From the IMG/VR virus record IMGVR_UViG_3300020048_000003: a stretch of DNA of 64,000 nt; one strand, given 5' to 3'. Positions 1-57,935 of this stretch are shown piece by piece (position 1 is the stretch's first letter; each line of letters starts with the position of its first letter). The notes under the pieces are model-generated. The model was not told the origin of the DNA. It was given only the letters and a program-made list of their open reading frames with translations, and searched no databases. The DNA is from a virus. A program made the position numbers and the translations under genes.

Positions 1-186
1 ACTAAACATAATTATGTAACAAAACAAGAAAGTGCAAAAGTAGGTGATAAATCAGAAGAATTTATTTTTTTAAGAGGTGAGTGGTTTGGATTGCAGAAAG
101 AAAAAGAAAAGAAAATTTTCCCAGCATCACAAGAAGAAATTGAATTTTATGAATTACATGATACTACAAATAAATATAATTTATGA
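1..186 (+). CDS. Fam-A small protein, 5'-truncated by window edge (ends ...TTNKYNL)
   Basis: Open frame from nt 1; C-terminal ...EEIEFYELHDTTNKYNL. Its TGA stop overlaps the next ATG (ATGA). Confidence 0.6.
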   Translation, partial: TKHNYVTKQESAKVGDKSEEFIFLRGEWFGLQKEKEKKIFPASQEEIEFYELHDTTNKYNL

Positions 187-452
187 AATATATAAAGACA
201 TACGAATCATATCCAAACCAAAAGAATAATGGAAGAATCAAAAAAGGTTCTTATGTTATATTAACTGGTTATTATGATATGAGATATTTTACTAAAGATA
301 AGCCATATAAAGTTGTTGATGTTAATAAAGCAGGTGATATAAAAATATATAATGATAAAAGAGAAATAGATATTATATCAAGAAGTCAATATGAAAAAGT
401 AAATAGAAAAGATATAAAACTTAATTTAGCAATAAGTAAATATAATTTATGA
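183..452 (+). CDS. Fam-A small protein (MKYIKTYE...SKYNL)
   Basis: Conserved N- and C-termini; ATGA coupling on both sides. Confidence 0.75.
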   Translation: MKYIKTYESYPNQKNNGRIKKGSYVILTGYYDMRYFTKDKPYKVVDVNKAGDIKIYNDKREIDIISRSQYEKVNRKDIKLNLAISKYNL

Positions 453-745
453 AATATTTGAAAATGTATGAAGATAATTTTGGGACACAGAAATATGAAG
501 TGGATGACTATGTTTTTTTATTAAATAATAGAAGATTCTGGAATTTAAACGTTTGTTGTAAAATTATAGATGTACTGGAAATTAAAAATGGAACAATAAG
601 TTATAAAATTAAAACTTTTTGGATTGATGATCCATCCAAAGAAGAAAAAGTATGGGTACTTCAGAAAGAAATTGAAAGAAAATTAACTCCAGAAGAAGTA
701 GAAGAATTTGAATTTAATCAAACTACAAATAAATATAATTTATGA
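449..745 (+). CDS. Fam-A small protein (MKYLKMYE...TNKYNL)
   Basis: Family termini; ATGA overlaps. Confidence 0.75.
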   Translation: MKYLKMYEDNFGTQKYEVDDYVFLLNNRRFWNLNVCCKIIDVLEIKNGTISYKIKTFWIDDPSKEEKVWVLQKEIERKLTPEEVEEFEFNQTTNKYNL

Positions 746-1101
746 GAACATACGAAAATTTTATAACGGATTTATTTAAGAAAAAGGAACCTATAATCAA
801 TAAATATAAAGTTGGTGATTATGTTGTTTATGATCCATTTTCTTTAAGAAATGATGATACTTTTTATGATTATGTTGGAAAAATTGTAGATATTCATAAT
901 AATACTGAGTTCAAGACTGGTTCATATACCATAGAAGGTGGAATACAATATGGAAGATCAGGAACATCAGGAGGTTTAGGTATGCCAGGAAAGAAGTTTA
1001 CTATATCACAATTAAATGATAGAGATTTTGAACGATTATTAACACCAGAAGAAATTGAAGAATTTGAATATAGAGAAAATATAAAAAAATATAATCTATG
1101 A
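742..1101 (+). CDS. Fam-A small protein (MRTYENF...KKYNL), VGDYV barrel core
   Basis: Variant N-terminus MRTYENF shared with the next gene; C-terminal LTPEEIEEFEY..KKYNL. Confidence 0.7.
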   Translation: MRTYENFITDLFKKKEPIINKYKVGDYVVYDPFSLRNDDTFYDYVGKIVDIHNNTEFKTGSYTIEGGIQYGRSGTSGGLGMPGKKFTISQLNDRDFERLLTPEEIEEFEYRENIKKYNL

Positions 1102-1433
1102 GAACATACGAAAATTTTATTGAAAATAAAAACCGATATTGGATAGTTGCGTCTAAATTTTTAGAGTCGGCATTAGAAGAAATTGGTACACCTAATTCAG
1201 GTGATGATTTATTTATAGAAGTTGATTCTTTCATAAATCATAAATTATCAGAACCAGGTCAATCATATGAATATGTAATAATCACTAATGATGTGAGGTT
1301 AAATCATAATGGTAAACATTGGGATTGGTTGTCTATGTCTGATGAAAACTTGGAATGGTTGAAAAACCATGAATATGAATATATGGGTACATTGCCAGAA
1401 TTTTATTCTGATACAAATAAATATAATTTATGA
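1098..1433 (+). CDS. Fam-A small protein (MRTYENF...TNKYNL)
   Basis: Family termini; ATGA overlaps. Confidence 0.7.
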   Translation: MRTYENFIENKNRYWIVASKFLESALEEIGTPNSGDDLFIEVDSFINHKLSEPGQSYEYVIITNDVRLNHNGKHWDWLSMSDENLEWLKNHEYEYMGTLPEFYSDTNKYNL

Positions 1434-1819
1434 AATATATAAAATTATTTGAATACGCCTTTAGAAAAGGAAAAGGAAATATAAATCTGAATGAGATTTA
1501 TATTTTATTTGATACTAATGAAGGTCATACACTTAATAAAGAAGTGGCAGAACAACAAAAAGTTCAATTGTTAGATATGTTTAAGAAACATTTTGAGATA
1601 GATGAAGACACAGAAGAATATGCTATGACTAACCACGCTTGGGCTTGGATAGTTAGATCATATACTATGAGTAGAGAAAGTTCACTTTCAATAAGTATAG
1701 TAACCACAAATGGTTGGTCAATTAGTGAAAAATCCACTGTAATAGAAGCAGAAGAACTTATAAGAATAGGATTAGAAAATTTAGATACTTATTTAGATGC
1801 AAAAAAGTATAATTTATGA
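1430..1819 (+). CDS. Fam-A small protein (MKYIKLFE...KKYNL)
   Basis: Family termini; ATGA overlaps. Confidence 0.75.
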   Translation: MKYIKLFEYAFRKGKGNINLNEIYILFDTNEGHTLNKEVAEQQKVQLLDMFKKHFEIDEDTEEYAMTNHAWAWIVRSYTMSRESSLSISIVTTNGWSISEKSTVIEAEELIRIGLENLDTYLDAKKYNL

Positions 1820-2157
1820 AATATATAAAATTGTTTGAAATGGAGAAGGATGAAGCAGATTTTTATTATCATGTGCCATATAATAATCTTACATTAATAG
1901 AGATTGTTTTAGAGAAGTTAAAGGTTTATAATGTTGATAAAATGATAACTGAAATTCGTGATAATTATAAAGAATTTAAAAGCTTATATCTTTTCATTTA
2001 TCTTGATAATGAATGGAAAAGAGCACAATTTTGGGTAATTAGAGATAATAAAGATGATTATCTTGCTAATTCGTATGCTGATGAAAATCATATTTATTAT
2101 AAAGGTGAATATGAATTAGAGCCTTATGAAGTATCAGCAGTAAAATATAATATTTAA
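1816..2157 (+). CDS. Fam-A small protein (MKYIKLFE...VKYNI)
   Basis: Family termini. Confidence 0.75.
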   Translation: MKYIKLFEMEKDEADFYYHVPYNNLTLIEIVLEKLKVYNVDKMITEIRDNYKEFKSLYLFIYLDNEWKRAQFWVIRDNKDDYLANSYADENHIYYKGEYELEPYEVSAVKYNI

Positions 2158-2159
2158 AG

Positions 2160-2462
2160 ATGAAATATATAAAAACATTTGAAAATCAAAACCCAAAATT
2201 AGTTGATGCCGCTAGATTTGGTGAATTTAAAAAACTTAAAGATATACTGCGTAATGGTGCGGATGTAAATACAGATTATAACGGAAGAAATGCTATATTT
2301 TGGGCAGTTTATAATGGAAATTTAGAAATGGTTAAGTATTTAATAAATTCTGGTGCTAATGTAGATGACCATATTTTAACAATTGCTAGAGGAAATTGGA
2401 ATAATCCAGAAATTATTAAAGAAATTCAGTTTGCTTTAGATGCAAATAAATATAATTTATAA
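2160..2462 (+). CDS. Fam-A small protein with ankyrin repeats
   Basis: MKYIKTFE...ANKYNL; interior GADVNTDYNGRNAIFWAVYNGNLEMVKYLINSGANVDD is a canonical ANK repeat pattern. Confidence 0.75.
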   Translation: MKYIKTFENQNPKLVDAARFGEFKKLKDILRNGADVNTDYNGRNAIFWAVYNGNLEMVKYLINSGANVDDHILTIARGNWNNPEIIKEIQFALDANKYNL

Positions 2463-2466
2463 AATG

Positions 2467-2826
2467 AAATATATAAAAGCATACGAATATGCAAAAAAAT
2501 CAGAATATTATTGGTTTATATGGGGAGATTATAAAACATTTTGTGATGTAGTAAAAGAATTTCTTTATCCAAAACAATATGAACACTTTTTAAGAAGTTC
2601 TGATACATATAAATTTGATGAAAGTGTAGTGGGTGGATTTATAACACAAAATTCCAAGAAAAAAGATGGGTATCTATTTTGGATATGTCACTCATTAGAA
2701 AATATGAAAGAAGCAGAAGAGTATTTTGAATTTGAGGGTGATATAATAGCAGGAGAACTTAAACTTATTGATAATAAATTAGTTAAAGATACGTTATATC
2801 GTGATATAAGAAAATATAACATTTGA
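2467..2826 (+). CDS. Fam-A small protein (MKYIKAYE...RKYNI)
   Basis: Start moved to the conserved MKYIK Met; the ORF-track start at 2440 is an in-frame upstream extension. Confidence 0.7.
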   Translation, partial: KYIKAYEYAKKSEYYWFIWGDYKTFCDVVKEFLYPKQYEHFLRSSDTYKFDESVVGGFITQNSKKKDGYLFWICHSLENMKEAEEYFEFEGDIIAGELKLIDNKLVKDTLYRDIRKYNI

Positions 2827-3107
2827 TGAAATATATAAAAACATACGAAATAATAGTCAATAAAAATACAGTTTATCCAAGTAAAAGTTTGGATAAATAT
2901 AAGTATAAAATTGGTGATTTGGTTCATGTTATAAATTACAGATTTGCTGGTAAAAGATGGAGTGAGAGTACAATATTTAAGATAGGTGCAATTGATACTG
3001 ACGCATATGATTGTTATTTTTTAGAACCAATATACTCTTATTTTAATGAAGAAAATTTAATACCAGTACCTGATTATGAATTAGATGCAATGAAATATAA
3101 TTTATAA
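2826..3107 (+). CDS. Fam-A small protein (MKYIKTYE...MKYNL), IGDLVHV barrel core
   Basis: Start taken at the second Met (MKYIK). Confidence 0.7.
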   Translation: MKYIKTYEIIVNKNTVYPSKSLDKYKYKIGDLVHVINYRFAGKRWSESTIFKIGAIDTDAYDCYFLEPIYSYFNEENLIPVPDYELDAMKYNL

Positions 3108-3108
3108 A

Positions 3109-3447
3109 ATGAAATATATAAAATTATTTGAACAAAAAGATGAATTAGAAATAGGAGACTATGTAATTTGTGTTGCTATGGATGAAAAAGATGATGAAAC
3201 AACATTAAATGATTTTTTGAAAGTGAACATTGGACGATTTATTGGAATTAAACCTAAGAAAATGAAAAAAAATAGAGATGCTTATATTGTTAAATTTGAT
3301 AAGGTGCCTAGTGATATACAAGCTGAGTTTGGTTCTAGTACAGATGGTATTAATGAAATATTTTTTGATAGATTTGAAATAATAGATTTTTCAAAGCACA
3401 AAGAAGACTTAGAACATTTTATACAAGCAAATAAATACAATTTATGA
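3109..3447 (+). CDS. Fam-A small protein (MKYIKLFE...ANKYNL)
   Basis: Family termini. Confidence 0.75.
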   Translation: MKYIKLFEQKDELEIGDYVICVAMDEKDDETTLNDFLKVNIGRFIGIKPKKMKKNRDAYIVKFDKVPSDIQAEFGSSTDGINEIFFDRFEIIDFSKHKEDLEHFIQANKYNL

Positions 3448-3851
3448 AATATATAAAATTATTTGAACAAAAAAATAAGGATCCTGAAAATGTTTTTTGG
3501 ATAATAAATGGCGATTTTGAGTATATCTTAAGTGTACTTAGAAAATTTTTGAAAAACAAGAGACATAGATTAGATTCTGGCTATGTAGATGCAGAGGAAA
3601 GAATTGCTGGAAATTTTGAAAATAATGTAAAAACTGATATTAGATATAATGAAAGTAATATTTTCGGTTTTTATTTAGCACATAGAGATGATAGATACAC
3701 TTATTGGGTTATAGATGAAAAAAGTGACGTAGAAGAAGGAAAAGAAAACTATATTGAAAACGATTATAAATTTGATGGTGAAATTAAATTAGAAAATAAT
3801 GAAATTGTAATAGATAGATTTATGGTAGATGTAGAAAATTATAATTTATAA
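3444..3851 (+). CDS. Fam-A small protein (MKYIKLFE...ENYNL)
   Basis: Family termini; last member of this array. Confidence 0.75.
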   Translation: MKYIKLFEQKNKDPENVFWIINGDFEYILSVLRKFLKNKRHRLDSGYVDAEERIAGNFENNVKTDIRYNESNIFGFYLAHRDDRYTYWVIDEKSDVEEGKENYIENDYKFDGEIKLENNEIVIDRFMVDVENYNL

Positions 3852-3866
3852 ATAATATATAGATTA

Positions 3867-4667
3867 ATGATAACTAAATTTCAATTATATGAACGTGTTA
3901 AAGCCAGAAGCAATGAAGATTTTATCAAAATTGCAAAATCTATTCATGGTGATAAATACGATTACTCCAAAATTGATTATAAAAATACTAAAGAGCCAAT
4001 AATAATAATATGTCCTGAACATGGTGAATTTTTACAATCACCGGAAAAACACCAATATCAAAAAAGTGGTTGTCCTGTTTGTGCTGGTAATTTACAACAT
4101 ACAAATGAAACTTTTAAAGAGAAAGCACAACAAATACACGGTGATAAATATAATTATGATAAAGTAGATTATAAAAATGTAAAAACAAATGTAATTATAA
4201 CTTGTAGAAAGCACGGTGATTTTTCACAAAGACCAAATAATCATTTATCTGGTGATGGTTGCCCAAGATGTAATAGTTCTAAAGGAGAGGCAAAAGTTAT
4301 TCAATATCTTTTGAAACATAACATAGATTTTGAACCTCAGAAAAAATTTCCTGATTGTAAATTAATTAATCCTTTACCATTTGATTTTTATTTGCCAGCA
4401 CATCATATGTGTATAGAATATGATGGCGAACAACATTTTGGACAATCAAGAAAATTTACATCAGAACAGTATGAGAAAACTATAATGAAAGATGAAATTA
4501 AAAATCAATATTGTAGAGATAACGATATAATCATGTTGAGAATTAAATATACTGATTTTAAGAATGTTGATAAAATTTTAGATGAAAATTTAGAAGATGT
4601 CTTGTCCAATAGATGGAGACTCAGGAAGTTTAGAGCATCTTCTAGATATTACCAATATTACCACTAA
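3867..4667 (+). CDS. Homing-endonuclease-like protein: two tandem Zn-ribbon repeats plus a C-terminal PD-(D/E)xK-like (DUF559/Vsr-like) nuclease
   Basis: Two copies of IHGDKY(D/N)Y.K(I/V)DYKN....II.C..HG.F...P..H....GCP.C; C-terminal FDFYLP...IEYDGEQHF resembles the DUF559/Vsr nuclease core. Confidence 0.5.
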   Translation: MITKFQLYERVKARSNEDFIKIAKSIHGDKYDYSKIDYKNTKEPIIIICPEHGEFLQSPEKHQYQKSGCPVCAGNLQHTNETFKEKAQQIHGDKYNYDKVDYKNVKTNVIITCRKHGDFSQRPNNHLSGDGCPRCNSSKGEAKVIQYLLKHNIDFEPQKKFPDCKLINPLPFDFYLPAHHMCIEYDGEQHFGQSRKFTSEQYEKTIMKDEIKNQYCRDNDIIMLRIKYTDFKNVDKILDENLEDVLSNRWRLRKFRASSRYYQYYH

Positions 4668-5692: not shown

Positions 5693-5707
5693 TGCAAAGA
5701 TACGGAA
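5693..5707 (-). promoter_or_regulatory. Conserved promoter element TTCCGTATCTTTGCA (Bacteroidetes-type -7 TAnnTTTG)
   Basis: Reverse complement of tgcaaagatacggaa; the same motif recurs upstream of at least 8 other genes. Confidence 0.55.
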
Positions 5708-5725: not shown

Positions 5726-6127
5726 TTATAAATTGTAATTTATCATATCAATTTCTAACTCTGTTGCTTTAACAAAATATTCATTTTTAGAAATTAATTT
5801 ACCTCTTTTATATGCTGAACTATCTCTTATCAAAGCAAAATAATACCAGAACGTTTTTAGTTTTTCATATTTATTCTCATAAATAAGAACTCTGATTTTA
5901 TATCCTTGATCACTAGTTATATAACAAGATAGAGAATCAGAGTCAGTATCATTTTGCTCTGGATTTATGTCTTCTATTTTGTATAATTTATCTTTAGTTG
6001 TATCAAAAAATATTTGGTGTATACCCGTAGGTAATTCATCAAACCAATATGCAGGAAAACCAGTACTAGGTTTCCTCCATATTGCAACTTTACATTTGAT
6101 ATAATCACCTACTTTATAATTGTTCAT
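5726..6127 (-). CDS. Fam-A-like small protein (ends ...MINYNL), KVGDYIKCKV barrel core
   Basis: C-terminal YNL junction motif; ATGA overlap with the downstream gene. Confidence 0.65.
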   Translation of the reverse strand: MNNYKVGDYIKCKVAIWRKPSTGFPAYWFDELPTGIHQIFFDTTKDKLYKIEDINPEQNDTDSDSLSCYITSDQGYKIRVLIYENKYEKLKTFWYYFALIRDSSAYKRGKLISKNEYFVKATELEIDMINYNL

Positions 6128-6744
6128 AACGCTAACTTATTAGGAATTACTTTTTTATTCATCCAATGTTCACTTGTTTGAACATGGTTTTCTCTAACCC
6201 ATTTAGCAACAGATGTATCAAAATCTTCAAAATTGAAACTATCTGCTAATCTGATTACATAACCTTCGTGCTTTTCAGTATCAAGTTTATAATTTCTAAG
6301 GAAGTTTTCATCAAATGTCCCACGCCATAAAACAGGTACCAGAGTTAATCCTAAGAGATTACACCACTCTTCAGTTTCATCCCAAGATAAGCATTCATTT
6401 TTTTCGTTCCAGATGGAGAACACTTGAAAATAACTCGTTAAATTGTTGTAACCAAGTGAATGTTCGGCATAAAGATTTTCACCACAAATACGCCAATCTT
6501 CTGGTATATTGTAACATATTGTACTCCAAAAACCTTTTAACCAATGTCTTGATGGATGATCAACACTATCTAATGAACGAGCGTGTGTATAATCTCTTGA
6601 AATTGTGGTATTTTCCCCGTCCATTTTTTCGGTCATTACAATTTCTTTTCCATGAAAGTGTGCAACAGATGATAATTTCTTATCGTCTGATGTAACACCT
6701 TGACTGAAAGGTAAATGATATGTACGAGGATATTTTGTTTTCAT
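6124..6744 (-). CDS. ATP-dependent RNA-ligase-like nucleotidyltransferase (Rnl family)
   Basis: N-terminal KYPRTYHLPFS followed by a KxDGxN motif-I-like sequence (EKMDGEN). Confidence 0.45.
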   Translation of the reverse strand: MKTKYPRTYHLPFSQGVTSDDKKLSSVAHFHGKEIVMTEKMDGENTTISRDYTHARSLDSVDHPSRHWLKGFWSTICYNIPEDWRICGENLYAEHSLGYNNLTSYFQVFSIWNEKNECLSWDETEEWCNLLGLTLVPVLWRGTFDENFLRNYKLDTEKHEGYVIRLADSFNFEDFDTSVAKWVRENHVQTSEHWMNKKVIPNKLAL

Positions 6745-6746: not shown

Positions 6747-6760
6747 TGCAAAGGTACGGA
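6747..6760 (-). promoter_or_regulatory. Conserved promoter element (CCGTACCTTTGCA) 2 nt from the ATG
   Basis: tgcaaaggtacgg lies immediately 5' of the 6744 start on the minus strand. Confidence 0.5.
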
Positions 6761-6779: not shown

Positions 6780-7466
6780 TTAAATTTCAGTTATAATAGC
6801 AAAAGGTGAAATATTAGAATATGTATAATATGCGCCCCAATCTTCACCAAATTTAGGGTCTTCATACAATTGGATTTTATTAACTAATCTAGTATCAATT
6901 TCTAAAATAAGTATATCATCATTTTTCTTATTATATCTTTCAATTATATCATTTCTATAATAAGATGCAGAATCCATATTATCAAATAAATAGATTCTAT
7001 CAGGGTGATTTTCTATTTTTGAATGTGAAATAGGTATTAAACCTTGTTTTTTTATTTTATTAATATAAAGTTTTTCTGTAACATGATACATTTTTAGTGG
7101 AACACCATTTGAATCAGAATCAAATTTTTTATTTAATTGTAATTTTATTTGATAATACGAATTAAACCATTCTGGTAATGATGGTAATCCTTTTCCCTTA
7201 TTATTATCAATATAATAAATTGAAACGTAATATCCTGCTAAATTTAATATTTGATATAATTTATCAACTACTTCTTTTGTTATATTTGTTCTATCAAAAG
7301 TGATTTCTAAACAAAAATCTTTAAAATTATATTCAAAAATTAATTGATTCTTAAGTGCATTTAATAATTTATCATACTCCCAACTAAGTATTAATCCTTC
7401 GTTGATTAAAGAAACAGGAAATTCTCGTATTTTATCTTCTCTTAAATGTTCTCTGAAATTATTCAT
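6780..7466 (-). CDS. Hypothetical protein
   Basis: 228-aa ORF with ATGA coupling. Confidence 0.55.
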   Translation of the reverse strand: MNNFREHLREDKIREFPVSLINEGLILSWEYDKLLNALKNQLIFEYNFKDFCLEITFDRTNITKEVVDKLYQILNLAGYYVSIYYIDNNKGKGLPSLPEWFNSYYQIKLQLNKKFDSDSNGVPLKMYHVTEKLYINKIKKQGLIPISHSKIENHPDRIYLFDNMDSASYYRNDIIERYNKKNDDILILEIDTRLVNKIQLYEDPKFGEDWGAYYTYSNISPFAIITEI

Positions 7467-7699
7467 GTGTTATATATAAAAGTCTGAATTTTCTTTAATT
7501 TTTCTTTTCTTTTTAAAACACGAATTTTTTGTTTTAATTGTTCTTCGGTTAACATTGGATATGAAAATAAAGGACTTTCACCATTTTTTATGAGTGAAAA
7601 TCTAGGACCTTCATCAGTAAAAAATCCAGTTACATATAAACCAAAATCTGATATTAAAAATGGATCATCAGAATATCCAAACATTCCATTTATTCTCAT
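7463..7699 (-). CDS. Fam-B small protein (tail KRKEKLKKIQ)
   Basis: Conserved basic C-terminal tail. Confidence 0.6.
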   Translation of the reverse strand: MRINGMFGYSDDPFLISDFGLYVTGFFTDEGPRFSLIKNGESPLFSYPMLTEEQLKQKIRVLKRKEKLKKIQTFIYNT

Positions 7700-10667: not shown

Positions 10668-10691
10668 ATTATTTTCCTTTAGAACACAAAT

Positions 10692-44046: not shown

Positions 44047-44072
44047 ATCAGGTTCATTTGAATATCGCATTT

Positions 44073-45941: not shown

Positions 45942-45946
45942 GTGCT

Positions 45947-49062: not shown

Positions 49063-49186
49063 CTTTTATTAATTATTTTTTTATGTTTTCACATAGGAAT
49101 TCTATCTAATTCTAATATAATAAATTAATTGATTAAAGTTTATAAAATCAGTTTGATAATTAAATATATAGATAAAATAAATTTTT

Positions 49187-50150: not shown

Positions 50151-50476
50151 GATATATTAAAACATTTGAGAAAAAATATGTAGAACCTTTTAGAAGAAAT
50201 AGAAAAAAAAATGGTCCGAAACCAAAATTTAATGTTGGTGATGAGGTTATTGTTATGTATGATTTAACACAATTTGGTTACCCATATGGGATCGTAAAAG
50301 GTGATATCGTTACAATAGTTGATTATTGGATAAATGCAAATGATGATATATCATATAAAATAGATAGTCCTAAACTTCGTGAGATAAAAAAAGGTAGAGA
50401 CATAGAATATGATATGTTTGATGAATTTCATTTCGCGTATGAATATGAAGAAGATGCAAATAAATATAATTTATGA
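50147..50476 (+). CDS. Fam-A protein (MRYIKTFE...ANKYNL), VGDEVIVMYD barrel
   Basis: Termini. Confidence 0.75.
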   Translation: MRYIKTFEKKYVEPFRRNRKKNGPKPKFNVGDEVIVMYDLTQFGYPYGIVKGDIVTIVDYWINANDDISYKIDSPKLREIKKGRDIEYDMFDEFHFAYEYEEDANKYNL

Positions 50477-50796
50477 AATATATTAAAACATTTGAAAAAA
50501 GATATAAACAAGAGGAGGATTTTGAAATTCCAGATGGAACTAAATTGTTGTGTGTTAGAAGTGATTACCATATGTTTAAGGTTGGTGATATTGTAGAAAT
50601 GAATTATTATAAAGCATATGGTGGTGTTGGATATTATTCTGGTATATCAAAAAATAATACAACTTATAGTGCTACGGTTATTGATGCAAATACAGTTCTA
50701 TTGGATAAATATCAAAGTACAGATGCGACTTTCACAACAGATGCTACAATAGAAGATTATAAATTAAGAAAAGCAACGGAGAAATATAATTTATGA
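50473..50796 (+). CDS. Fam-A protein (MKYIKTFE...TEKYNL), VGDIVEMNY barrel
   Basis: Termini. Confidence 0.75.
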   Translation: MKYIKTFEKRYKQEEDFEIPDGTKLLCVRSDYHMFKVGDIVEMNYYKAYGGVGYYSGISKNNTTYSATVIDANTVLLDKYQSTDATFTTDATIEDYKLRKATEKYNL

Positions 50797-51233
50797 AATA
50801 TATTAAAATGTATGAAATAAAGAGTTTAGAAAAAAGAACTGACATTTTTGCTGATGCTGTCAAAAATGATAAGAAAGCTTTGATTAATAAGATGATTGAT
50901 AATGATATTAATCAAAATGAAGGAGAATTTATATTAATAGCAGTGATTTATAATGATGAGAAGATTTTGAAAAAATTAATAAAAAAAGGCGTTGACTTAA
51001 ATGCATTAACTCAAGCAGGATATTCGCCATTAATTTTTACTGCTATTCAAGGTTTTCATAGTTGTATGAATACACTTATAGAAGCAGGTGCAGATTGGAA
51101 TATTATAGATGATAGTGGACATGATTTTTTAAGATATTTACCATCTTATTTAAGAAATAAAACAATAGAAAAATATCCAGAGCAATATAAAGAATATTTA
51201 TTTAGAAAAGAATCAGAAAAATATAACTTATGA
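50793..51233 (+). CDS. Fam-A protein with ankyrin repeats (MKYIKMYE...SEKYNL)
   Basis: KKGVDLNALTQAGYSPLIFTAIQGFHSCMNTLIEAGADWNIIDDSGHDFL is an ANK repeat pattern. Confidence 0.75.
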   Translation: MKYIKMYEIKSLEKRTDIFADAVKNDKKALINKMIDNDINQNEGEFILIAVIYNDEKILKKLIKKGVDLNALTQAGYSPLIFTAIQGFHSCMNTLIEAGADWNIIDDSGHDFLRYLPSYLRNKTIEKYPEQYKEYLFRKESEKYNL

Positions 51234-51562
51234 AATATATTAAAACATATGAAACTATAAATATTCCTTCATCACGACCGAGTGATGCGTGGCTTAATGT
51301 ATATACTGATTATAGAGTAGGTGACATTGTAAAAATTTGGAACGAATTTTATGCTGGTGAGATAGTTTATTTGTGCCGTTCATATGGCGGAAGATATACT
51401 AGTCATGATGTTAAAGGTATTATGAATTATGATGGTTCATTAAGAAATGGTGATATAAAGACGATAGATGAAGAATATATGAGAAAATTAGATCCTAATG
51501 AGTTGAAAGGATTTAAAGATTTGTTAAGTATGCACGATGATGTAAAAAAATATAATTTATGA
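51230..51562 (+). CDS. Fam-A protein (MKYIKTYE...VKKYNL), VGDIVKIWN barrel
   Basis: Termini. Confidence 0.75.
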   Translation: MKYIKTYETINIPSSRPSDAWLNVYTDYRVGDIVKIWNEFYAGEIVYLCRSYGGRYTSHDVKGIMNYDGSLRNGDIKTIDEEYMRKLDPNELKGFKDLLSMHDDVKKYNL

Positions 51563-51819
51563 AATATATTAAAATATATGAAATGAAAAAACAAAAACCA
51601 AAATTTTCTGTTGGTGAGAAGGTGGAATGTATTTTCTCTAGATGGGGAAATCTAAAGGAGGGTGAAATATATGAAATTGAAAGAATTACTTGGTCTAGAA
51701 GAAAAGGTAAATTTGTGTGTAAATTAAAAGGTGTTGGTGCAGATGATGAGTATTCTTATTTTTCAGAGAATAATTTTATTAGTGAACTTGAACATGATAT
51801 GAAAAATTATAACTTATGA
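51559..51819 (+). CDS. Fam-A protein (MKYIKIYE...MKNYNL)
   Basis: Termini. Confidence 0.75.
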   Translation: MKYIKIYEMKKQKPKFSVGEKVECIFSRWGNLKEGEIYEIERITWSRRKGKFVCKLKGVGADDEYSYFSENNFISELEHDMKNYNL

Positions 51820-52250
51820 AATATATTAAAACATTTGATAATACTAGTCAGAAATTAGAAGATATTAAAAAACTTCAATTGTCTAAACTTGCTATTTTTA
51901 AATTTTCAAAAAAAATAAACGAATTATTTCAAAAACATTATAATGTATCAACAATATTAAGAGAAGAAGATTCAAATCACCACCAAATAAAAAATAGATA
52001 TGATATATCTGATAGTGTTTTAAAAAGAAAAACATATTTTTCAATTTCAATTACACCTAATTATAAAATAGATATTTTTCCTCTTAGTGTAAGCAACGAT
52101 TTAGAAAAATTTTTTATAGAATTTTTTGATTTGGATTCACAAAATTATAGTATAAGAATATTCTGCACTTCAGAAGAATTGAATGATTATTGCGATATAA
52201 TTGTTGATGAATTTGATTTGTATGTTGCCACAAAAAAATATAACTTATGA
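51816..52250 (+). CDS. Fam-A protein (MKYIKTFD...TKKYNL)
   Basis: Termini. Confidence 0.75.
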   Translation: MKYIKTFDNTSQKLEDIKKLQLSKLAIFKFSKKINELFQKHYNVSTILREEDSNHHQIKNRYDISDSVLKRKTYFSISITPNYKIDIFPLSVSNDLEKFFIEFFDLDSQNYSIRIFCTSEELNDYCDIIVDEFDLYVATKKYNL

Positions 52251-52687
52251 AATATTTACATTTATTTGAAAATCAAAATGAATCATACCCTTATGAATGG
52301 GAAAATATTGTTCAAAAAGGTAACAAATTATATATTTATGTCTATGAATTAGCAAACGAAATGGAAAGTGATGTTGCTGGAAAAGGTAAAGAAGAATTAG
52401 TTAAAATGGAACATACTTATTATAAGTTAATTAGAAATTTATTAATTGGTAAAGTTATAACCTTTGACTGTGAAGAATGTTCAATTGAACATACTGGTAT
52501 TTGTGATACCGTAGGTTTTTCTTCTGGACGTTATGAAGAAGGATCCGATGATACATTTCAAGTTCAGTTTGTACATATATCAACAGAAGATATAGATGAC
52601 CAGCATAATATTGAAGATGAAGAAATAATTGTTCACTTAGACATTGATCCTGAAACTTATAGAACAGCAAATAAATACAATTTATAA
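52247..52687 (+). CDS. Fam-A protein (MKYLHLFE...ANKYNL)
   Basis: Termini. Confidence 0.75.
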   Translation: MKYLHLFENQNESYPYEWENIVQKGNKLYIYVYELANEMESDVAGKGKEELVKMEHTYYKLIRNLLIGKVITFDCEECSIEHTGICDTVGFSSGRYEEGSDDTFQVQFVHISTEDIDDQHNIEDEEIIVHLDIDPETYRTANKYNL

Positions 52688-52695
52688 TATAATTT

Positions 52696-53010
52696 ATGAA
52701 ATATATACTGGAAATGAAACATATGAAATCTGCAATTTATTATAGTGATGGATCCGCTTATTATGAGGACTATAATGACATGGATGAATTTGATTTAGAG
52801 ATAGTTAAAAATTATAAATTTAGAATAGGTGATTGTGTTAGAATAAACGACACTATTGTTGTATATAAAATATTAGCAGTTTCTCCTGACTCAAAGTATC
52901 AATATAAAATTGGAAGATACGATCAAGGATTTGGTACAAATAGAATAGAAGAAAAAGATTTAGTTCCAATATCAGACTTTGAAAGAAATATAATGAAGTA
53001 TAATTTGTAA
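52696..53010 (+). CDS. Fam-A protein (MKYILEMKHMK...IMKYNL), IGDCVRIND barrel
   Basis: Termini. Confidence 0.7.
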   Translation: MKYILEMKHMKSAIYYSDGSAYYEDYNDMDEFDLEIVKNYKFRIGDCVRINDTIVVYKILAVSPDSKYQYKIGRYDQGFGTNRIEEKDLVPISDFERNIMKYNL

Positions 53011-53296: not shown

Positions 53297-53608
53297 TTAT
53301 AAATTATATTTATCTGCAATATCTTCCATTTCAATTTTGAATCTTGTTGATTCCCAGCCCTTTGAAATTTCACCCGTTTCAATATTTTCAACATCAACTC
53401 TTAAAAAATCATTTTTAAGAAAAATATCTTCTCCTAATCTGTATATTTTTATGACTTTAAATTTATCTCCGATTTCTAATACATGCTTCACACTACCTTT
53501 TATAGTTGACATATATCCAGTATCTCTTACACAGACTACAGTATCACCAACACCATAATCAATAAGTTGACCTGTTGTATATAATTCAAATAATTTTAAA
53601 TATTTCAT
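53297..53608 (-). CDS. Fam-A protein on the minus strand (MKYLKLFE...ADKYNL), VGDTVVCVRD barrel
   Basis: Termini; first gene of a 6-gene inverted array. Confidence 0.75.
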   Translation of the reverse strand: MKYLKLFELYTTGQLIDYGVGDTVVCVRDTGYMSTIKGSVKHVLEIGDKFKVIKIYRLGEDIFLKNDFLRVDVENIETGEISKGWESTRFKIEMEDIADKYNL

Positions 53609-53611
53609 ATT

Positions 53612-53971
53612 TTATAAGTTATATTTTTGTCCTTCTATTGCAATATCTATTTCATCTTTGTTGGCAAACCTTATATAAGCATCAAACCCATTTGGTGTTT
53701 TACCACATTGAAGAATCCAATAATTATCTAGTACCCAACCAATTTTATTTAATTTTAAAAAACTCTTTTTAAGTTTAATAATTCCTTTTAATACTTCATC
53801 AAAAGTTCCTCTTGTGTTATGTGTCTCATTTTTTATACCATTTACTGTATATGTATATCTACTTAAATAATCTCTTTCACCTGGTGCGAATAAATCATCA
53901 GAATCATATTCTTGAATTTGAAGTCCGTGTTTAATCCATTCAACTTCTTCAAATAATTTTAAATATTTCAT
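53612..53971 (-). CDS. Fam-A protein (MKYLKLFE...GQKYNL)
   Basis: Termini. Confidence 0.75.
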   Translation of the reverse strand: MKYLKLFEEVEWIKHGLQIQEYDSDDLFAPGERDYLSRYTYTVNGIKNETHNTRGTFDEVLKGIIKLKKSFLKLNKIGWVLDNYWILQCGKTPNGFDAYIRFANKDEIDIAIEGQKYNL

Positions 53972-54321
53972 AAGTTATATTTATTTGTTTCTTCAAGAAA
54001 TTTGAATTTTTCAATTTCTTCTTCTGTTGCTGGTCTTAATATTTTTACATCTGACTTTACCTTTATAATTTCTCTCATACCATCTAAATCAAATATTTGC
54101 TCTATAAAACTTATCTTTGTATGTCCTTTTGCTTCTAATAATAATATTTTATAATAAAAACCATCAGCACCGTAATATTTACCAGTTGTAAATTTTTCTA
54201 ATTTCATTATACAATCAAGCATATCATTCTTATATCTCCAATATGTATTGTTTATAAAATCAGATAAAGATATTTCATCTGGCGTTTCTAAAACTATTTC
54301 AAATGTTTTAATATACTTCAT
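53968..54321 (-). CDS. Fam-A protein (MKYIKTFE...TNKYNL)
   Basis: Termini. Confidence 0.75.
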   Translation of the reverse strand: MKYIKTFEIVLETPDEISLSDFINNTYWRYKNDMLDCIMKLEKFTTGKYYGADGFYYKILLLEAKGHTKISFIEQIFDLDGMREIIKVKSDVKILRPATEEEIEKFKFLEETNKYNL

Positions 54322-54659
54322 AAGTTATATCTTTTTGCATCTTGTTTAAATTTGAATTCTTCAATTCTATCTTTAAATTTTTCAATTTCAGCAGGATAAG
54401 CATGTCTTATCCAACTATTTATTTTCCATGGGTCTGCATCATCAACAACAAAACTATATTGCCAACCTTTTAAATATGTCAAAGTATATTTTTTATTATA
54501 TTTTGTATGTTGCTTAATGCTAGTTATTTGTGCTGGTTCATATAGGACTAAATTTTTTAAATGTGTACCAACATTCACATCATCTAAATAAACCCAATCC
54601 CCAACATTGAATTGAGTTGAATTTTCAAAATTTTCAAATATTTTAAAATTAGTTATCAT
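54318..54659 (-). CDS. Fam-A protein (MITNFKIFE...AKRYNL), VGDWVYLDD barrel
   Basis: Termini. Confidence 0.7.
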   Translation of the reverse strand: MITNFKIFENFENSTQFNVGDWVYLDDVNVGTHLKNLVLYEPAQITSIKQHTKYNKKYTLTYLKGWQYSFVVDDADPWKINSWIRHAYPAEIEKFKDRIEEFKFKQDAKRYNL

Positions 54660-54976
54660 AAATTGTATTTATTTGCATGTGTAAATACCTCTATATCTTC
54701 TTTTTCTGATGAATATTTTAATATTTCATCACTATTAAACCAAGTTGGATTTGCAAAAGTATAGCTTCTATCAACACAATCCTCATCAAATTCTACTAAT
54801 ATTCTAAATTGTAATGGGATTTTATTAGTTATTTTAATATCAAGTACTTTTCCTATACTAACACTTAGATAACTATTATATAAAGGATCAAAATAATCCT
54901 CAGCATCAATCAATACATAATCACCAATCTCTAATTGTTTATCTACTTCCGCTTCAAATAATTTAATATATTTCAT
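54656..54976 (-). CDS. Fam-A protein (MKYIKLFE...ANKYNL), IGDYVLID barrel
   Basis: Termini. Confidence 0.75.
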   Translation of the reverse strand: MKYIKLFEAEVDKQLEIGDYVLIDAEDYFDPLYNSYLSVSIGKVLDIKITNKIPLQFRILVEFDEDCVDRSYTFANPTWFNSDEILKYSSEKEDIEVFTHANKYNL

Positions 54977-55437
54977 ATATTATATTTTTTTGCATCTTTT
55001 TTGATTTGAAAATTTTCAATATCTGATTTAATTTCTTCTTTTACTTTTTTTACTTTTTTAATAAATTTTTTTGTCTTGAAATCATAATTCTCATTCTCAT
55101 TAAATTCTATATTTTCAACCTGTTCAACAAATTTAGTAAAATCATCTGTTACAAATATAATATTACATTCGTGAACAAATAGAGTCAAAGGTTCTAAATC
55201 AGGTTCGTGTTCATTATTATGTGCTAATTCCTTTAATTCTTTTTCATTTAGATCTGATAATAGTTTTATCAAAAATACTTTTCTATCATCATAAATGTAA
55301 TCTGTATAATTTTGAACTACAATACCATACAAATGAAACCAAAAAACATTATCTTTACCGGTATTATCGCCTAAGATAACATATTGACCTTCTTTTATAT
55401 TGTATAGTTCAAATTCAAATAATTTTAAATATTTCAT
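54973..55437 (-). CDS. Fam-A protein (MKYLKLFE...AKKYNI)
   Basis: Termini. Confidence 0.75.
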   Translation of the reverse strand: MKYLKLFEFELYNIKEGQYVILGDNTGKDNVFWFHLYGIVVQNYTDYIYDDRKVFLIKLLSDLNEKELKELAHNNEHEPDLEPLTLFVHECNIIFVTDDFTKFVEQVENIEFNENENYDFKTKKFIKKVKKVKEEIKSDIENFQIKKDAKKYNI

Positions 55438-55482
55438 ATAACAATTATATATAAAAATAATTTTTAAATTTATATATAGTGT

Positions 55483-56379
55483 ATGATAATAAGATTTAAT
55501 AAGTATGAATTAGTTGAAGAAAAATTAAACATAAATTTCGGCAATTTAATAAATTGTGTGCTTATTTATTTTGCATTTTTTAATGGATTGGATGATACAA
55601 AGCAGATTAAAATATCGGAGGTTATTAAATATACCAAAAATTTTGATATTAAAAACAATGATAAAATAGTTAAAGACGCTCTTAACGATATGAAAGATAA
55701 AGTGTTAAGTGATGATAAAATTCTTAATAAGAAAGAAGTTGTTGCGTATTTGGATTCTATTGCAATAGTTAGAAAAAAAGATGATAAAATCTCAAAAGCT
55801 ATGTATGGACTTTCTACCTCAAATGGTACAAAAGCATCATCTTTTGCAATATCATTAGATAAAAGTGATTTTGGATATAATTGTGATATGATTTTCTTAG
55901 ATGATGATGCAGATTATAATGAAATTATACATGAATTAACTCATGTTATAAAAAATCACATGAAATTAAATACAAGTTTAGATTTTGAAAAATTATTTAA
56001 TTTTAATAAATCAGTTAGACAGCAAAAAAAAGATATAAAGGTTTTAACAGGTGGACTTTTTGAGTATTCAATAGATACAAAGAAAGAATCTGAATTTATA
56101 GAATATATACAGACACCATCAGAATTATATTCAAGACTAACAAGTTTCAAAATGTTTTTATATAAAAGAGGATATTTGAAAACTCCAAATGAAGACTTCT
56201 CACCACAGTTAATTAGAAGAATAACTAATGGTAGTTTGTATGCAGGTATGTCAGCAAGAGATAGACATTTATTTATAAATTCTGATTTCCTTGATATTTT
56301 ATTGTTTATTGACAGAACAAAAATTCATATGTTGGATCAATTTGTTCAAAATATTTCTAAAAATAATGATTTAGCATGA
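55483..56379 (+). CDS. Hypothetical protein with an HExxH motif (possible Zn-metallopeptidase)
   Basis: IIHELTHVI; no other diagnostic motifs seen. Confidence 0.4.
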   Translation: MIIRFNKYELVEEKLNINFGNLINCVLIYFAFFNGLDDTKQIKISEVIKYTKNFDIKNNDKIVKDALNDMKDKVLSDDKILNKKEVVAYLDSIAIVRKKDDKISKAMYGLSTSNGTKASSFAISLDKSDFGYNCDMIFLDDDADYNEIIHELTHVIKNHMKLNTSLDFEKLFNFNKSVRQQKKDIKVLTGGLFEYSIDTKKESEFIEYIQTPSELYSRLTSFKMFLYKRGYLKTPNEDFSPQLIRRITNGSLYAGMSARDRHLFINSDFLDILLFIDRTKIHMLDQFVQNISKNNDLA

Positions 56380-56843
56380 AGTACTTAAAATTATTTGAAG
56401 ACTATTCAAAAGAAGAAATACGAAATTTTCTGATAAAAGCACAACAAAATTCTCAAATTGATATTAAAACTAATATTGATAATTTAATGGACAATTTATC
56501 AAAAATAAAAAGACCAGAACTTGGAACTTTTGAATATTTCGTAAATAGCGAAGCTAGATTTATATCTGAAGGTGATTATAAACGAATGGGAGAATATATA
56601 GAAGGTTTTAAAAAATTAGGTATAGATGTATCAAAAGTTGAAAAACTCTATCCAAAATTGCTTAGATATAAGACAATTCAATTAAAAGAACTTGATAATT
56701 ACGAACATGGATATTCTCAAAAAGAGAAAGAAAAGAATTTAGATAGATTATATGATGAATTGAATGATTTAGAACCATATAAAGTTCAATTTGACGATGA
56801 AGTAAAAATATTAACAAAAAAAGCAAAACAACTTGATAACTAA
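56376..56843 (+). CDS. Fam-A N-terminal type protein (MKYLKLFEDY...) lacking the KYNL end
   Basis: Ends ..KQLDN* within a degenerate junction. Confidence 0.6.
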   Translation: MKYLKLFEDYSKEEIRNFLIKAQQNSQIDIKTNIDNLMDNLSKIKRPELGTFEYFVNSEARFISEGDYKRMGEYIEGFKKLGIDVSKVEKLYPKLLRYKTIQLKELDNYEHGYSQKEKEKNLDRLYDELNDLEPYKVQFDDEVKILTKKAKQLDN

Positions 56844-57309
56844 ATTATTTGAATTTGTGAGTGGATATATCATATCTTATGAAGATATTAAGAAAAAATT
56901 ATCTAATTATAAGAGTATTACATTTACAGAAGATAAAATTGAATTTATTTTTGATGAACTTTCTAAAGAAACAAATGGTGAATGCTATTATCAATGGAAT
57001 TTAGATAAAATGGTGAACCTCTTTGAGAATTATATAATTAGTTTTTATAAATATAATAGTGATACTGAATATTGGAAAACAGAACCAAAGAAAGAGGATT
57101 TTATCATAACTGATCAAATTATGACAATGACATATAAAAAACTTTTTAGAAAATCTCCCATAAAGTTAGGAACAGGAACTGTTAATATTGAATATTATGA
57201 TAAAAATAGTTATAAAGCATTTAATGTTATAATAGATAAGACTAAACCATTTACAGTTTATATTGACGAAACTACTTTTATAAGAGATGCTGATAAATAT
57301 AATTTATAA
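56833..57309 (+). CDS. Fam-A C-terminal type protein (..ITKLFEF...ADKYNL) with no ATG (TTG start or frameshifted junction)
   Basis: The junction is 'ttgataactaaattatttgaa' instead of 'ttatgaaatatataaaattatttgaa'. The ORF starts at a TTG and overlaps the upstream gene by 11 nt in the +1 frame. Confidence 0.5.
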   Translation: MITKLFEFVSGYIISYEDIKKKLSNYKSITFTEDKIEFIFDELSKETNGECYYQWNLDKMVNLFENYIISFYKYNSDTEYWKTEPKKEDFIITDQIMTMTYKKLFRKSPIKLGTGTVNIEYYDKNSYKAFNVIIDKTKPFTVYIDETTFIRDADKYNL

Positions 57310-57403
57310 TGCCGGATATTGCCGGATATTGCCGGATAAAATCATATTGTTTTGATAATCAAACACTTAATTTTTAGAAAATTGCCGTTAATTGCCGGTT
57401 TCA
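57309..57403. repeat. GC-island tandem repeats: (A)TTGCCGGATA x3, then ATTGCCGTTAATTGCCGGTTTC
   Basis: Five copies of a TTGCCGK core within about 95 bp, in an otherwise AT-rich convergent intergenic region. Confidence 0.7.
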
Positions 57404-57618
57404 TTTTCATCATGTTTTTGCTCAGTAATTTTATGAACGAGTGTCAATATACCCTCAATAGCATGTTCTCTTCTTGATTGACTTAGAGTTTCTTCCATTT
57501 CTAATACTCTATTTATGAGAAACGCAATTTGAACAATGTTTCCTGTTTCAATTAAACTTGAACCAACAAAAATTTCAAGTAGGTTTGTTATTTCTTCCAT
57601 TCTATTACTGACTTTCAT
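57388..57618 (-). CDS. Hypothetical small protein
   Basis: 76-aa ORF; its 3' end overlaps the TTGCCGG repeats. Confidence 0.45.
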   Translation of the reverse strand: MKVSNRMEEITNLLEIFVGSSLIETGNIVQIAFLINRVLEMEETLSQSRREHAIEGILTLVHKITEQKHDENETGN

Positions 57619-57935
57619 ATATTATATTTTCTACATTCATATTCAAATTTCAAATCCATTGTGTACTTATCAAAATCTAAAATAGGTTCCCATTCATCTT
57701 CTGTTTCTTTAAACTTAGTATAAGTTGTTTCCCCTTTATGATGTCTACCAGTTGTAGAATAATGACCATAAGGAATTAAATCTGATGGTTCGCACCATAC
57801 TACCTCAGATTCGTGAATAAAGGTAACTCTATCAACCCAATAGTATGAGCGGTGAGCCGTTATACTCATATCTATTTTTGAATACCAGTATCTACCACCC
57901 CATTTATTTTGCCAATATGTTTTATCTTCTTCCAT
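57615..57935 (-). CDS. Fam-A-like protein (C-terminal ...ECRKYNI)
   Basis: C-terminal junction motif. Confidence 0.55.
   Translation of the reverse strand: MEEDKTYWQNKWGGRYWYSKIDMSITAHRSYYWVDRVTFIHESEVVWCEPSDLIPYGHYSTTGRHHKGETTYTKFKETEDEWEPILDFDKYTMDLKFEYECRKYNI

Follow-up and report, generated by a model that had tools for sequence, protein, structure and literature searches.

In a 64,000-nt stretch of viral DNA (IMG/VR record IMGVR_UViG_3300020048_000003; hereafter the window) we analysed a family of small, tandemly arranged genes whose products share a short N-terminal and a short C-terminal peptide (the N-tag and the C-tag) around bodies of varying sequence. We consider it somewhat more likely than not that this family represents the T-even type of internal protein in a hyper-expanded form with two tags, encoded by a huge T4-related myovirus of a Bacteroidota host. 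In such a phage, late-type ATATATAA promoters would drive the gene arrays together with the head genes, and the transcripts would be translated as coupled polycistrons. The unstructured N-terminal leader, MKY(I/L)Kx(F/Y)E or the rarer M(K/R)TYENFI, would dock each protein onto the prohead scaffolding core, like the capsid targeting sequence (CTS) of T4, and would probably be clipped by the S77 prohead protease after a Glu. The mostly acidic binding bodies (SH3/Tudor-like, ankyrin, leucine-rich repeat or LRR) would remain in the head, enter the host with the DNA, and there bind and neutralise host factors such as defence proteins. The near-identical coding junctions would double as recombination sites at which cassettes are duplicated, deleted and shuffled. 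The make-up of the family, the peptide-level conservation and portability of the tags, the turnover of cassettes, the two promoter classes and the T4-type head module of a relative are direct observations, from which we infer packaging, cleavage, injection and targets.

A gene family defined by its two ends

The census was based on all stop-to-stop open reading frames (ORFs) of the window, which has a GC content of 26% and is densely coded; 140 ORFs comprise at least 60 aa. YN(L/I) directly precedes the stop codon in 47 of these and YNV in two more, which gives 49, and the same tripeptide inside ORFs has a background frequency of 0.29% (59/20,603). An MKY start was found in 30 ORFs of the window, and the N-tag MKY(I/L)Kx(F/Y)E, or a variant of it, opens approximately 40 of the 140. 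By a strict regular expression both tags are present in 34 ORFs, the remainder mostly bearing degenerate N-tags (MIYLKYFE, MIKLFE, MNHLKLFE, MITxFKIFE). Four more genes, one partial (1-185), one of 32 aa (39020-39118) and two with the N-tag only (23770-23958 and 56376-56843), bring the family to about 53, and the figure of about 51 given in the initial annotation of this DNA holds. These genes span 19,749 nt, or 31% of the window. The translational coupling in tandem that had been proposed was likewise found, as 4-nt ATGA overlaps at 30 of the 39 same-strand junctions. Since the probability of 100 open codons by chance is 1.6e-4 at 26% GC, the family ORFs are not chance products. Moreover, for one member (53297-53608), independent metagenomes supplied 22 or more orthologues, whose mean column identity is 62% and in which many body residues are invariant.

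Alignment of the members confirmed that the termini are conserved in comparison to the interior: information content is 2.2-4.3 bits at N-terminal positions 1-5, 7 and 8 and rises to 3.1-4.3 bits over the final four residues, whereas the positions in between stay below 1 bit each. The N-tag consensus is M1-K2-(Y/H)3-(I/L)4-K5-x-(F/Y)7-E8. The C-tag takes up the last ~14 residues; it consists of a stretch that is acidic and amphipathic (positions -14 to -10 from the C-terminus) and, after it, (D/N)(A/T)x(K)YN(L/I). Most of the proteins are acidic: the median isoelectric point (pI) is 5.3, and 59% of members have a pI below 6.

The conservation of the tags acts on the peptide. Within the tags, the conserved Tyr and Asn residues are encoded by TAC in 15% of cases (8% in bodies) and by AAC in 29% (12% in bodies). 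The sole fixed synonymous site is the third base of the last codon, which is always A because the ATGA overlap demands it. In other phages KYNL is replaced by KFNL, KYNM or xYNL (Y to F; L to I, M or V), and in a 501-kb relative the C-tag lies 1-2 residues before the stop (KKYNISL, KYNIL, KYNII). Singletons and the genes at either end of an array have kept the tags, too. Thus, since synonymous sites vary, substitutions are conservative and tags persist away from junctions, it can be concluded that the peptides themselves are under selection. In addition, there is a recombination layer at the DNA level. The Ile4 codon is array-specific (ATA in 8/8 cases in the array at 1-3851, ATT in 6/6 in the array at 49190), identical runs at junctions reach 32-35 nt, against a maximum of 13 nt in body controls, and identical runs of 20 nt or more were seen in 18% of pairs from one array, compared with 4.7% of pairs from different arrays. 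The initial annotation had raised a junction repeat acting purely at the nucleotide level as a competing possibility; given the synonymous-codon test and the tags kept away from junctions, we reject it as the only cause, although the DNA layer itself (codons and long identical runs) is real.

The same data bear on a broader proposal, namely that the tags are a by-product of array architecture, in which a coupling or initiation ramp of the MKYIK type would combine with junction homogenisation by recombination or gene conversion, and no protein signal would be involved. The frequent ATGA overlaps, the invariant A of the last codon, the array-specific Ile4 codon, the long junction runs with their within-array excess and the shuffling of cassettes described below all fit this proposal. 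However, Tyr and Asn synonymous sites are less constrained than in bodies, Y to F changes are conservative, and tags occur on first and last array genes, on singletons, and 1-2 codons off the stop. Furthermore, Phe7 and Glu8 lie past any initiation ramp, the N-tag begins dispersed, uncoupled genes in the related genome LR756500, and other genes of the same genome have no tag. We regard the by-product explanation as improbable.

Two narrower candidates were also rejected. TATAAT within the KYNL codons is not a promoter, as TAC and AAC variants occur often and no enrichment of sigma70-like sites was seen; neither promoter-like nor terminator-like sites are enriched inside the arrays of the window. 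A free C-terminus of the PDZ, tail-specific protease or degron type was discarded because the C-tag is internal by 1-2 residues in the 501-kb relative.

Two members, one of them 53297-53608, were modelled with AlphaFold2 (AF2), using real alignments. In both, the leader (residues 1-13 in one, 1-10 in the other) lacks secondary structure, and its predicted local confidence (pLDDT) is below 50. The body forms a barrel of 5-6 strands (pLDDT 70-90), and a helix ending at ...KY makes up the C-terminus. For this helix, a pLDDT of 80-89 was obtained until about 8 residues from the end. The linker from Glu8 to the first barrel strand measures 5-39 residues and contains indels among orthologues. The suggested pairing of the N- and C-terminal segments, or clamp, does not appear in either of the two models. 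A structural role of the termini, in which an N-terminal strand and the C-terminal helix would form the clasp of one ancestral small fold whose bodies diverged, would suit the many members with an SH3-like barrel followed by a confidently predicted C-terminal helix. Nevertheless, the N-tag is poorly predicted in both models and lies at a variable distance from the barrel, ankyrin and LRR proteins bear the same tags, tags-only proteins of 32-53 aa exist, and N- and C-tags also occur separately. Of all explanations discussed here, we give the clasp the least credence.

About 20 of the 49 window members (~40%) share an xGDxV beta-barrel that is SH3/Tudor-like according to AF2 and Foldseek; the remaining bodies include two ankyrin members as well as helical and alpha/beta ones. 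The earlier description of the bodies as unrelated from copy to copy is overstated because of this dominant SH3-like class, but it stands for the others, which differ, and BLASTP among members gave just three related body pairs. Foldseek retrieved only generic Tudor, SH3, PWWP and FeoA barrels and uncharacterised small phage proteins, and a PDB sequence search and Foldseek runs against PDB and BFVD gave nothing beyond generic SH3/Tudor-like or uncharacterised phage proteins. A Pfam census of 150 members yielded ankyrin in 6, LRR in 4, one DUF3696 match and no enzyme domain; an N-tag-only gene of a relative has a weak methyltransferase-like match.

At the lower end of the size range are mini-members with little beyond both tags. 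A search with a 40-aa tags profile returned 34 candidates, among them three such proteins of 41-53 aa from other metagenomes (P0199-P0201), and with the 32-aa product of 39020-39118 the range becomes 32-53 aa. These mini-genes could be empty cassettes left after body deletion, or minimal functional units. A metagenomic protein of 176 aa, P0129, is a natural read-through fusion of adjacent cassettes (...ILIANKYNI-YENKQENIKIGD...SLKYNL), and shows that junction mutations can merge units.

Resemblance to the internal proteins of T-even phages

That the termini are tags and the body a variable payload, as the initial annotation proposed, is supported by the peptide-level conservation, the portability of the N-tag, the unstructured leader on its linker and the varied payloads; the design is not without precedent, since the T-even internal proteins follow it (PMC12373910, PMC9026906). 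They are the one documented case of unrelated small, non-essential phage proteins with only an N-terminal leader of about 10 residues in common, MKTYQEFIAE (10.1101/2021.01.19.427310, PMC9026906, PMC12373910). This leader directs the protein to the prohead core and is removed by the gp21 protease (10.1101/2021.01.19.427310, PMC9026906), its residues 4 and 7 serving in targeting and residues 8 and 10 in processing (PMC9026906). Ip1-3 are injected and each inhibits a different GmrSD enzyme (10.1101/2021.01.19.427310; PMC9026906; PMC12373910; PMC2839356), and more than 30 internal-protein variants have been described in plastic loci (PMC12373910, PMC2839356).

Our family is similar in that its bodies are dissimilar and a short N-terminal leader is common to them (PMC12373910, PMC9026906). 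Its main and minor leaders have hydrophobic residues at positions 4 and 7, the targeting determinants of T4 (PMC9026906), with a Glu nearby. The family variant MKTYENFITD comes close to MKTYQEFIAE. This second leader, of the M(K/R)TYENFITD type, stands in the same slot in five ORFs of the source genome (MRTYENFITD, MRTYENFIEN, (TTG start)KTYENFITD, MRTYESFIFK, MKTYKQFNEA) and has 5-6 identities out of 10 with MKTYQEFIAE (BLOSUM62 26-36); all ORFs of the dataset with the second leader also end in YNL.

Further evidence comes from a relative with a T4-type head module. The only backbone relatives in databases are LR756500/1/3, "uncultured phage" genomes of 462-735 kb, which belong to the Mahaphage clade with predicted Bacteroidetes hosts (PMC7162821). 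LR756500 carries the N-tag, and its major vault protein (MVP) homologue is 52% identical to that of the window. Its head module is in T4 order (Portal_T4, 2e-70; Peptidase_S77, 6e-11, above the Pfam cutoff; Gp23 major capsid protein or MCP, 8e-34), and T4-like TerL and sheath genes are also present. T4-type prohead core genes have been reported in Lak and related Bacteroidota jumbo phages as well (PMC8346664, PMC12619734). The N-tag occurs in LR756500 on 10 dispersed, uncoupled genes of 140-491 aa, two of which encode LRR proteins. Their leaders, MK(Y/F)(I/L)KxYE(E/D/N)F(I/L)xE, contain F-(I/L)-x-E, which is the context of T4 F7-I8-A9-E10. Half of these tagged genes end in (A/S)DDFG(F/M/L)..., e.g., DDFGFFDN, instead of KYNL. 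The tags are separable; the N-tag is the older one, and the C-tag is specific to the lineage of the window phage.

Several other features of the 462-kb LR756500 were observed. A parallel tagged family (L024 28290-29921 and 31170-31661; L038-L041) combines the N-leader, here extended to MKYIKEYEEF(I/L)xE, LRR bodies and the C-tag (A/S)DDFG(F/M)(F/L)DN. The T4-like large terminase matches three ORFs (L040 1833-6325, minus strand; 1e-32, 5e-19 and 1.5e-15), which suggests a split gene; introns, inteins or homing elements may be the cause. The S77 prohead protease (L040 35226-37124, minus strand) has its domain at residues 30-165, followed by a C-terminal extension of ~470 residues, and may be a protease-scaffold fusion, cf. 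gp21 and gp22 of T4.

Two classes of promoter boxes were distinguished. Class 1, YSBTAnnTTTG, which we take to be the Bacteroidota sigma-A -7 box (TAnnTTTG), lies ahead of enzyme operons (RNA ligase, HD hydrolase, phosphoesterases) and supports a Bacteroidota host and a two-class transcription programme. Class 2, WATATATAD (ATATATAA), has 33 of its 48 hits within the 13% of the window that is intergenic, and is found 13-41 nt upstream of every array start in the window. At other loci, class 2 precedes 20 of 39 family-first genes versus 39 of 141 others (p=0.007), and class 1 precedes 0 of 39. As the ATATATAA box of LR756500 stands ahead of the MCP (-33), protease (-25) and portal (-58) genes and of four N-tag genes, the arrays are probably transcribed together with the head genes.

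Taken together, the points of likeness with the T-even internal proteins include the T4-type module of portal, S77 protease and gp23 in the clade, the turnover of cassettes in hyperplastic loci (PMC2839356, PMC12373910) and a promoter box common to family and head genes. There are also differences: at least 67 family genes lie in 84 kb, in comparison to 3 in T4, the main leader has a distinct sequence, and a C-terminal helix with the YN(L/I) tag is added. The family genes are fused by ATGA overlaps without intergenic signals, and their payloads include ankyrin and LRR domains.

Some of the observations weigh against the T-even interpretation. The main leader scores only 2-9 (BLOSUM62) against MKTYQEFIAE, keeping M1, K2, a hydrophobic residue 4 and F/Y 7. 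The second leader was found in the source genome only, with 2 of its 5 ORFs among the 318 C-tag proteins classified. Glu8 is present in 141 of 145 representatives, and the P3 residue is most often T (73), followed by L (25) and K (21), so that the (L/I)xE rule of T4 is not generally followed. The T4-type head module was seen in LR756500 only, a relative whose C-tag differs and whose tagged genes are larger, scattered and just 10 in number; in the window phage, the head and protease genes lie outside the 84 kb of the source contig that were examined. The late assignment of the class-2 box depends on the transfer of a motif between phages. The family is acidic, while IPI-III of T4 are highly basic and DNA-associated, which we treat as a difference and not as an exclusion because basicity is not universal among packaged proteins of T4 (Alt). 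The conserved C-tag is unexplained by the packaging model, no isolate with the family was found among GenBank phages (one well-populated subfamily tested), and at least 67 packaged species in 84 kb would be an unprecedented number.

The ejection or inner-body proteins of the giant phages phiKZ and SPN3US, which the prohead protease processes, are large and fewer, form homologous paralogue groups and are not known to have a short universal leader or a C-tag. They are comparable in another respect, as a giant myovirus here, too, has many head-internal proteins, with N-propeptides removed after Glu (PMC5694885, PMC7411985).

The C-terminal helix and the (K)YN(L/I) tag may constitute a second docking or processing element. 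It is conceivable, though we would not call it likely, that the two ends form an address system, in which the N-leader would load 70-100+ binders into the capsid, the lineage-specific C-tag would govern a second step (ejection order, refolding, host docking or loading of another cage), and the junction would be a built-in recombination site. Such an injected proteome would diversify itself, on a scale well above all that T4 is known for.

The proteins could instead never be packaged and act as cytoplasmic effectors or adaptors, whose tags dock to a common phage or host hub (protease, chaperone, ribosome, polymerase) and whose body brings the target, in the manner of poxvirus ANK-PRANC/F-box proteins or of the SspB-type tether peptide. 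The payloads are indeed binding modules (ANK, LRR, SH3-like), the C-tag is exposed after an acidic amphipathic helix, as in hub-binding tails, and the two tags together with a second, basic-tail family in the same genome (described below) suggest a general tagging logic. On the other hand, no candidate receptor was identified, the leader resembles the T4 CTS in a clade with a T4 prohead core protease, the arrays lie behind the same box as the head genes, and the C-tag is not strictly C-terminal (KYNISL) and is replaced by DDFGFFDN in LR756500. We consider such adaptors unlikely.

In encapsulins and bacterial microcompartments, a short terminal peptide on a flexible linker is the sole common feature of diverse cargo and serves to choose it. 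By analogy, the tags could be cargo-loading peptides for a phage-built compartment, e.g., a vault-like cage made of the MVP homologue at 30777-33206. This homologue is full-length, it lies beside family arrays in all 5 close relatives, and it is found in the N-tag-bearing LR756500, too. However, the co-occurrence is explained by shared ancestry and is uninformative because the distribution follows phylogeny, and the MVP region of LR756501 is nearly devoid of family members. The leader resembles a capsid targeting sequence and no vault INT domain; its sequence and that of the C-tag are unrelated to encapsulin and microcompartment peptides, and the family occurs in a phage context with a T4-type head. 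Loading into a cage thus appears very unlikely to us.

Distribution of the family and turnover of its cassettes

The window is part of a 209-286 kb contig, and the 84 kb examined contain ~67 members. A scan of IMG/VR for the exact junction gave 22 loci with a GC content of 21-26%, some of them on contigs of 154-330 kb, and at 20 of the 22 the same tags occur with other bodies in arrays. An exhaustive profile search of metagenomes yielded at least 1,075 cluster representatives (50% identity, E <=1e-3), all from low-GC huge phages. The tags are almost invariant in the top 145 representatives, and 257 of the 318 classified C-tag proteins have the N-tag in near-invariant form.

That this is not a known family, as initially claimed, agrees with the lack of any entry in Pfam, PHROGs, PDB or the literature. 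Searches of Pfam and PHROGs with ten members, and of Pfam with 150, gave no model for the shared parts and only ANK/LRR payloads. For the metagenome representatives, no source gave a protein name or Pfam domain, a literature search for the tag motifs found none, and a single-sequence database search gave only 2 matches. The GenBank phage collection contained no backbone nucleotide match, and no protein match for the subfamily tested. The junction was also absent from 185,579 cellular species genomes, save one mis-binned phage contig. The family is undescribed and large; the principle of leader and variable payload in T4-type phages is already known. The contig JAFGOA010000025.1 (L030; 37.7 kb, 25% GC), labelled as a 'Promethearchaeota archaeon' metagenome-assembled genome (MAG), has the same phage backbone and KYNL-family genes; almost certainly it comes from a huge phage and was assigned to an Asgard archaeal MAG by mis-binning.

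The content of the arrays turns over. In relatives whose MVP is 80-83% identical to that of the window, the backbone is collinear (45-82% identity), and arrays in the same positions hold different cassettes; several orthologues (31-56% identity) are located in other arrays of the window. Whole-gene insertion, deletion and shuffling between related phages are evident from the array content, and the comparison points to recombination as their probable source. This turnover matches the prediction of recombination at repeated junctions. A comparable system is that of the promoter-early stem-loop (PeSL) cassettes, which mediate modular shuffling in T4-type phages (PMC2839356; PMC4122927). There, a repeat present dozens of times flanks ORFans in hyperplastic regions and offers short homology for whole-gene insertion, deletion and shuffling; here, every cassette lies between junction repeats that contain identical runs as long as 35 nt, and the array content varies among relatives. 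PeSL, however, is a non-coding element of ~100 bp with a sigma70-like promoter and a stem-loop terminator, whereas our repeat is coding, composed of C-tag codons, overlapping stop and start, and N-tag codons, with neither promoter nor terminator between family genes.

Genomic layout and significance

The positions of the arrays proposed in the initial annotation are retained, except that 38499-42814 proved to be two arrays, split between 41150 and 41382. Among the singletons, the one at 25355 is half of a pair, and 57010-57309 and 63242-63568 have been added. The family genes and the boxes associated with them are as follows.

1-3851 (+), array 1: one partial member (1-185, ending ...HDTTNKYNL) and 11 complete members
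Array 1 (+), first six complete members: 183-452, 449-745, 742-1101, 1098-1433, 1430-1819, 1816-2157; those at 742 and 1098 have the T4-CTS-like leader MRTYENFI
Array 1 (+), last five: 2160-2462 (ankyrin), 2464-2826, 2826-3107, 3109-3447, 3444-3851
5726-6127 (-), singleton with C-tag only (...MINYNL) and an SH3-like start, MNNYKVGDY; joined by an ATGA overlap to the upstream RNA ligase gene 6124-6744
22252-22260 (+), class-2 (late-type) box TAATATATAA, 25 nt upstream of 22277; heads the transcription unit running into the 22861 array
22861-23958 (+), short array: 22861-23244 (KYNL), 23247-23537 (KYNI), 23534-23773 (KYNV)
23770-23958 (+), N-tag-only member of this array, MKYLQKFE...PNHTKDAISFKGSS, conserved in related phages
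25355-26289 (-), member pair: 25879-26289 and 25355-25882, with a class-2 box at 26304-26312
34778-34786 (+), class-2 box TTATATATAG, 29 nt ahead of the gene that opens the 34807 array
34807-37350 (+), array of 4: 34807-35136, 35133-35591, 35588-35980, 35977-37350; the last gene (457 aa, acidic helical) is the only one of the array with a homologue (45% identity) in the syntenic array of relatives
38458-38466 (+), class-2 box, 41 nt upstream of 38499
38499-41150 (+), array of 7, first four: 38499-39020, 39020-39118, 39115-39579, 39576-40079
38499-41150 (+), array of 7, last three: 40079-40339, 40336-40653, 40650-41150
39020-39118 (+), tags-only 32-aa member MKYLKKKISANRLTSKERVEFEYQRNIRKYNL, also predicted by an independent gene caller, with ATGA-type coupling retained on both sides
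41369-41377 (+), class-2 box TTATATATAA, 13 nt upstream of 41382
41382-42814 (+), array of 2: 41382-42422 (346 aa, C-terminal SH3-like part), 42419-42814
42815-42844 (no strand), bidirectional terminator-like hairpin with a 13-bp stem, ending the 41382 array
49163-49171 (+), class-2 box AATATATAG, 27 nt upstream of 49190
49190-53010 (+), array of 11, first six: 49190-49534, 49531-49818, 49815-50150, 50147-50476, 50473-50796, 50793-51233 (ankyrin)
49190-53010 (+), array of 11, last five: 51230-51562, 51559-51819, 51816-52250, 52247-52687, 52696-53010
53297-55437 (-), inverted array of 6: 54973-55437, 54656-54976, 54318-54659, 53968-54321, 53612-53971, 53297-53608
55445-55478 (-), two class-2 boxes, lying 16 and 41 nt ahead of 55437(-); the motif is a palindrome, so that both are also oriented towards the divergent gene 55483(+)
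56376-56843 (+), N-tag-only member, MKYLKLFEDYSKEE...KKAKQLDN
57010-57309 (+), singleton with a degenerate N-tag (MVNLFENY) and the C-tag DADKYNL
57615-57935 (-), singleton with C-tag only (CRKYNI), with a host-type (class-1) box ahead; its orthologue in the related locus L026 is 56% identical
63242-63568 (-), singleton with C-tag only (CDKYNV), behind a class-1 box; its family membership is doubtful
5697-5705, 6751-6759, 10689-10697, 29388-29396, 45932-45942, 57941-57949, 58797-58805, 60190-60198 and 63591-63599, class-1 boxes (e.g., TTCCGTAYCTTTGCA), 14-46 nt upstream of enzyme operons and of the two C-tag-only singletons at 57615 and 63242

Array 1 extends 4 more genes upstream, beyond the window. 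At its other end lies a gene of the DUF723/treble-clef zinc-finger type (3867-4667, plus strand), with an ATATATA box of its own; the type is typical of homing-endonuclease-like elements. Directly after the stop of 57010-57309, a tandem repeat, TGCCGGATAT, occurs three times at 57310-57340 and is unusually GC-rich for this genome.

The window contains a second family that is defined by a terminus, with approximately 20 small genes and more on both flanks. Its products end in a basic tail, (I/Y)RKxKLxK(L/I)xxx, are mostly basic (median pI 9.1) and are encoded in overlapping arrays; no Pfam match was obtained for them. Both tagged families together account for 69 of the 122 window genes. The basic-tail genes and other neighbours are listed below.

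7463-7699, 8534-9562, 9876-10145, 12587-13161, 15559-15882, 18546-18788 and 27979-28497, basic-tail family, first part
29072-29350, 33275-34298, 37347-38413, 47405-47716, 48178-48510 and 63611-63973, basic-tail family, second part
L032 35-1966, L034 1-1271 and L034 3998-6381, basic-tail family on the flanks
30777-33206 (-), full-length MVP homologue of 809 aa (MVP_shoulder, 1e-27; Vault_3, 9e-10)
42846-44057, 15879-16868 and 19464-21347 (-), cell-envelope/polysaccharide genes

Five IMG/VR huge-phage contigs encode the MVP homologue with 80-83% identity, and LR756500/1/3 with 51-52%. The first report of phage MVPs is a 2023 preprint (10.1101/2023.11.10.566534), hence that of the window is not new. 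The envelope gene products are a fusion of a response-regulator receiver with a bacterial sugar transferase, a GDP-mannose 4,6-dehydratase and a glycosyltransferase-methyltransferase fusion.

If the members of the two-tag family are indeed packaged and injected, the phage would bring into the host a pre-made arsenal of dozens to more than 100 small binders, able to act before phage gene expression. Since tagged genes occupy nearly a third of the window, this would help to explain the purpose of a large share of the unannotated small genes of huge phages. The leader and the C-tag would then provide a sequence rule for finding candidate anti-defence and host-takeover proteins in metagenomes, where the clusters described above are available, and the leader itself would be a natural 8-residue encapsidation tag for engineering Bacteroidota phages. 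The junctions, in turn, would represent a coding sequence at which cassettes are also shuffled. Should packaging prove wrong, the family would still be unusual in being defined by a pair of portable terminal peptides, and it merits a Pfam-type description.

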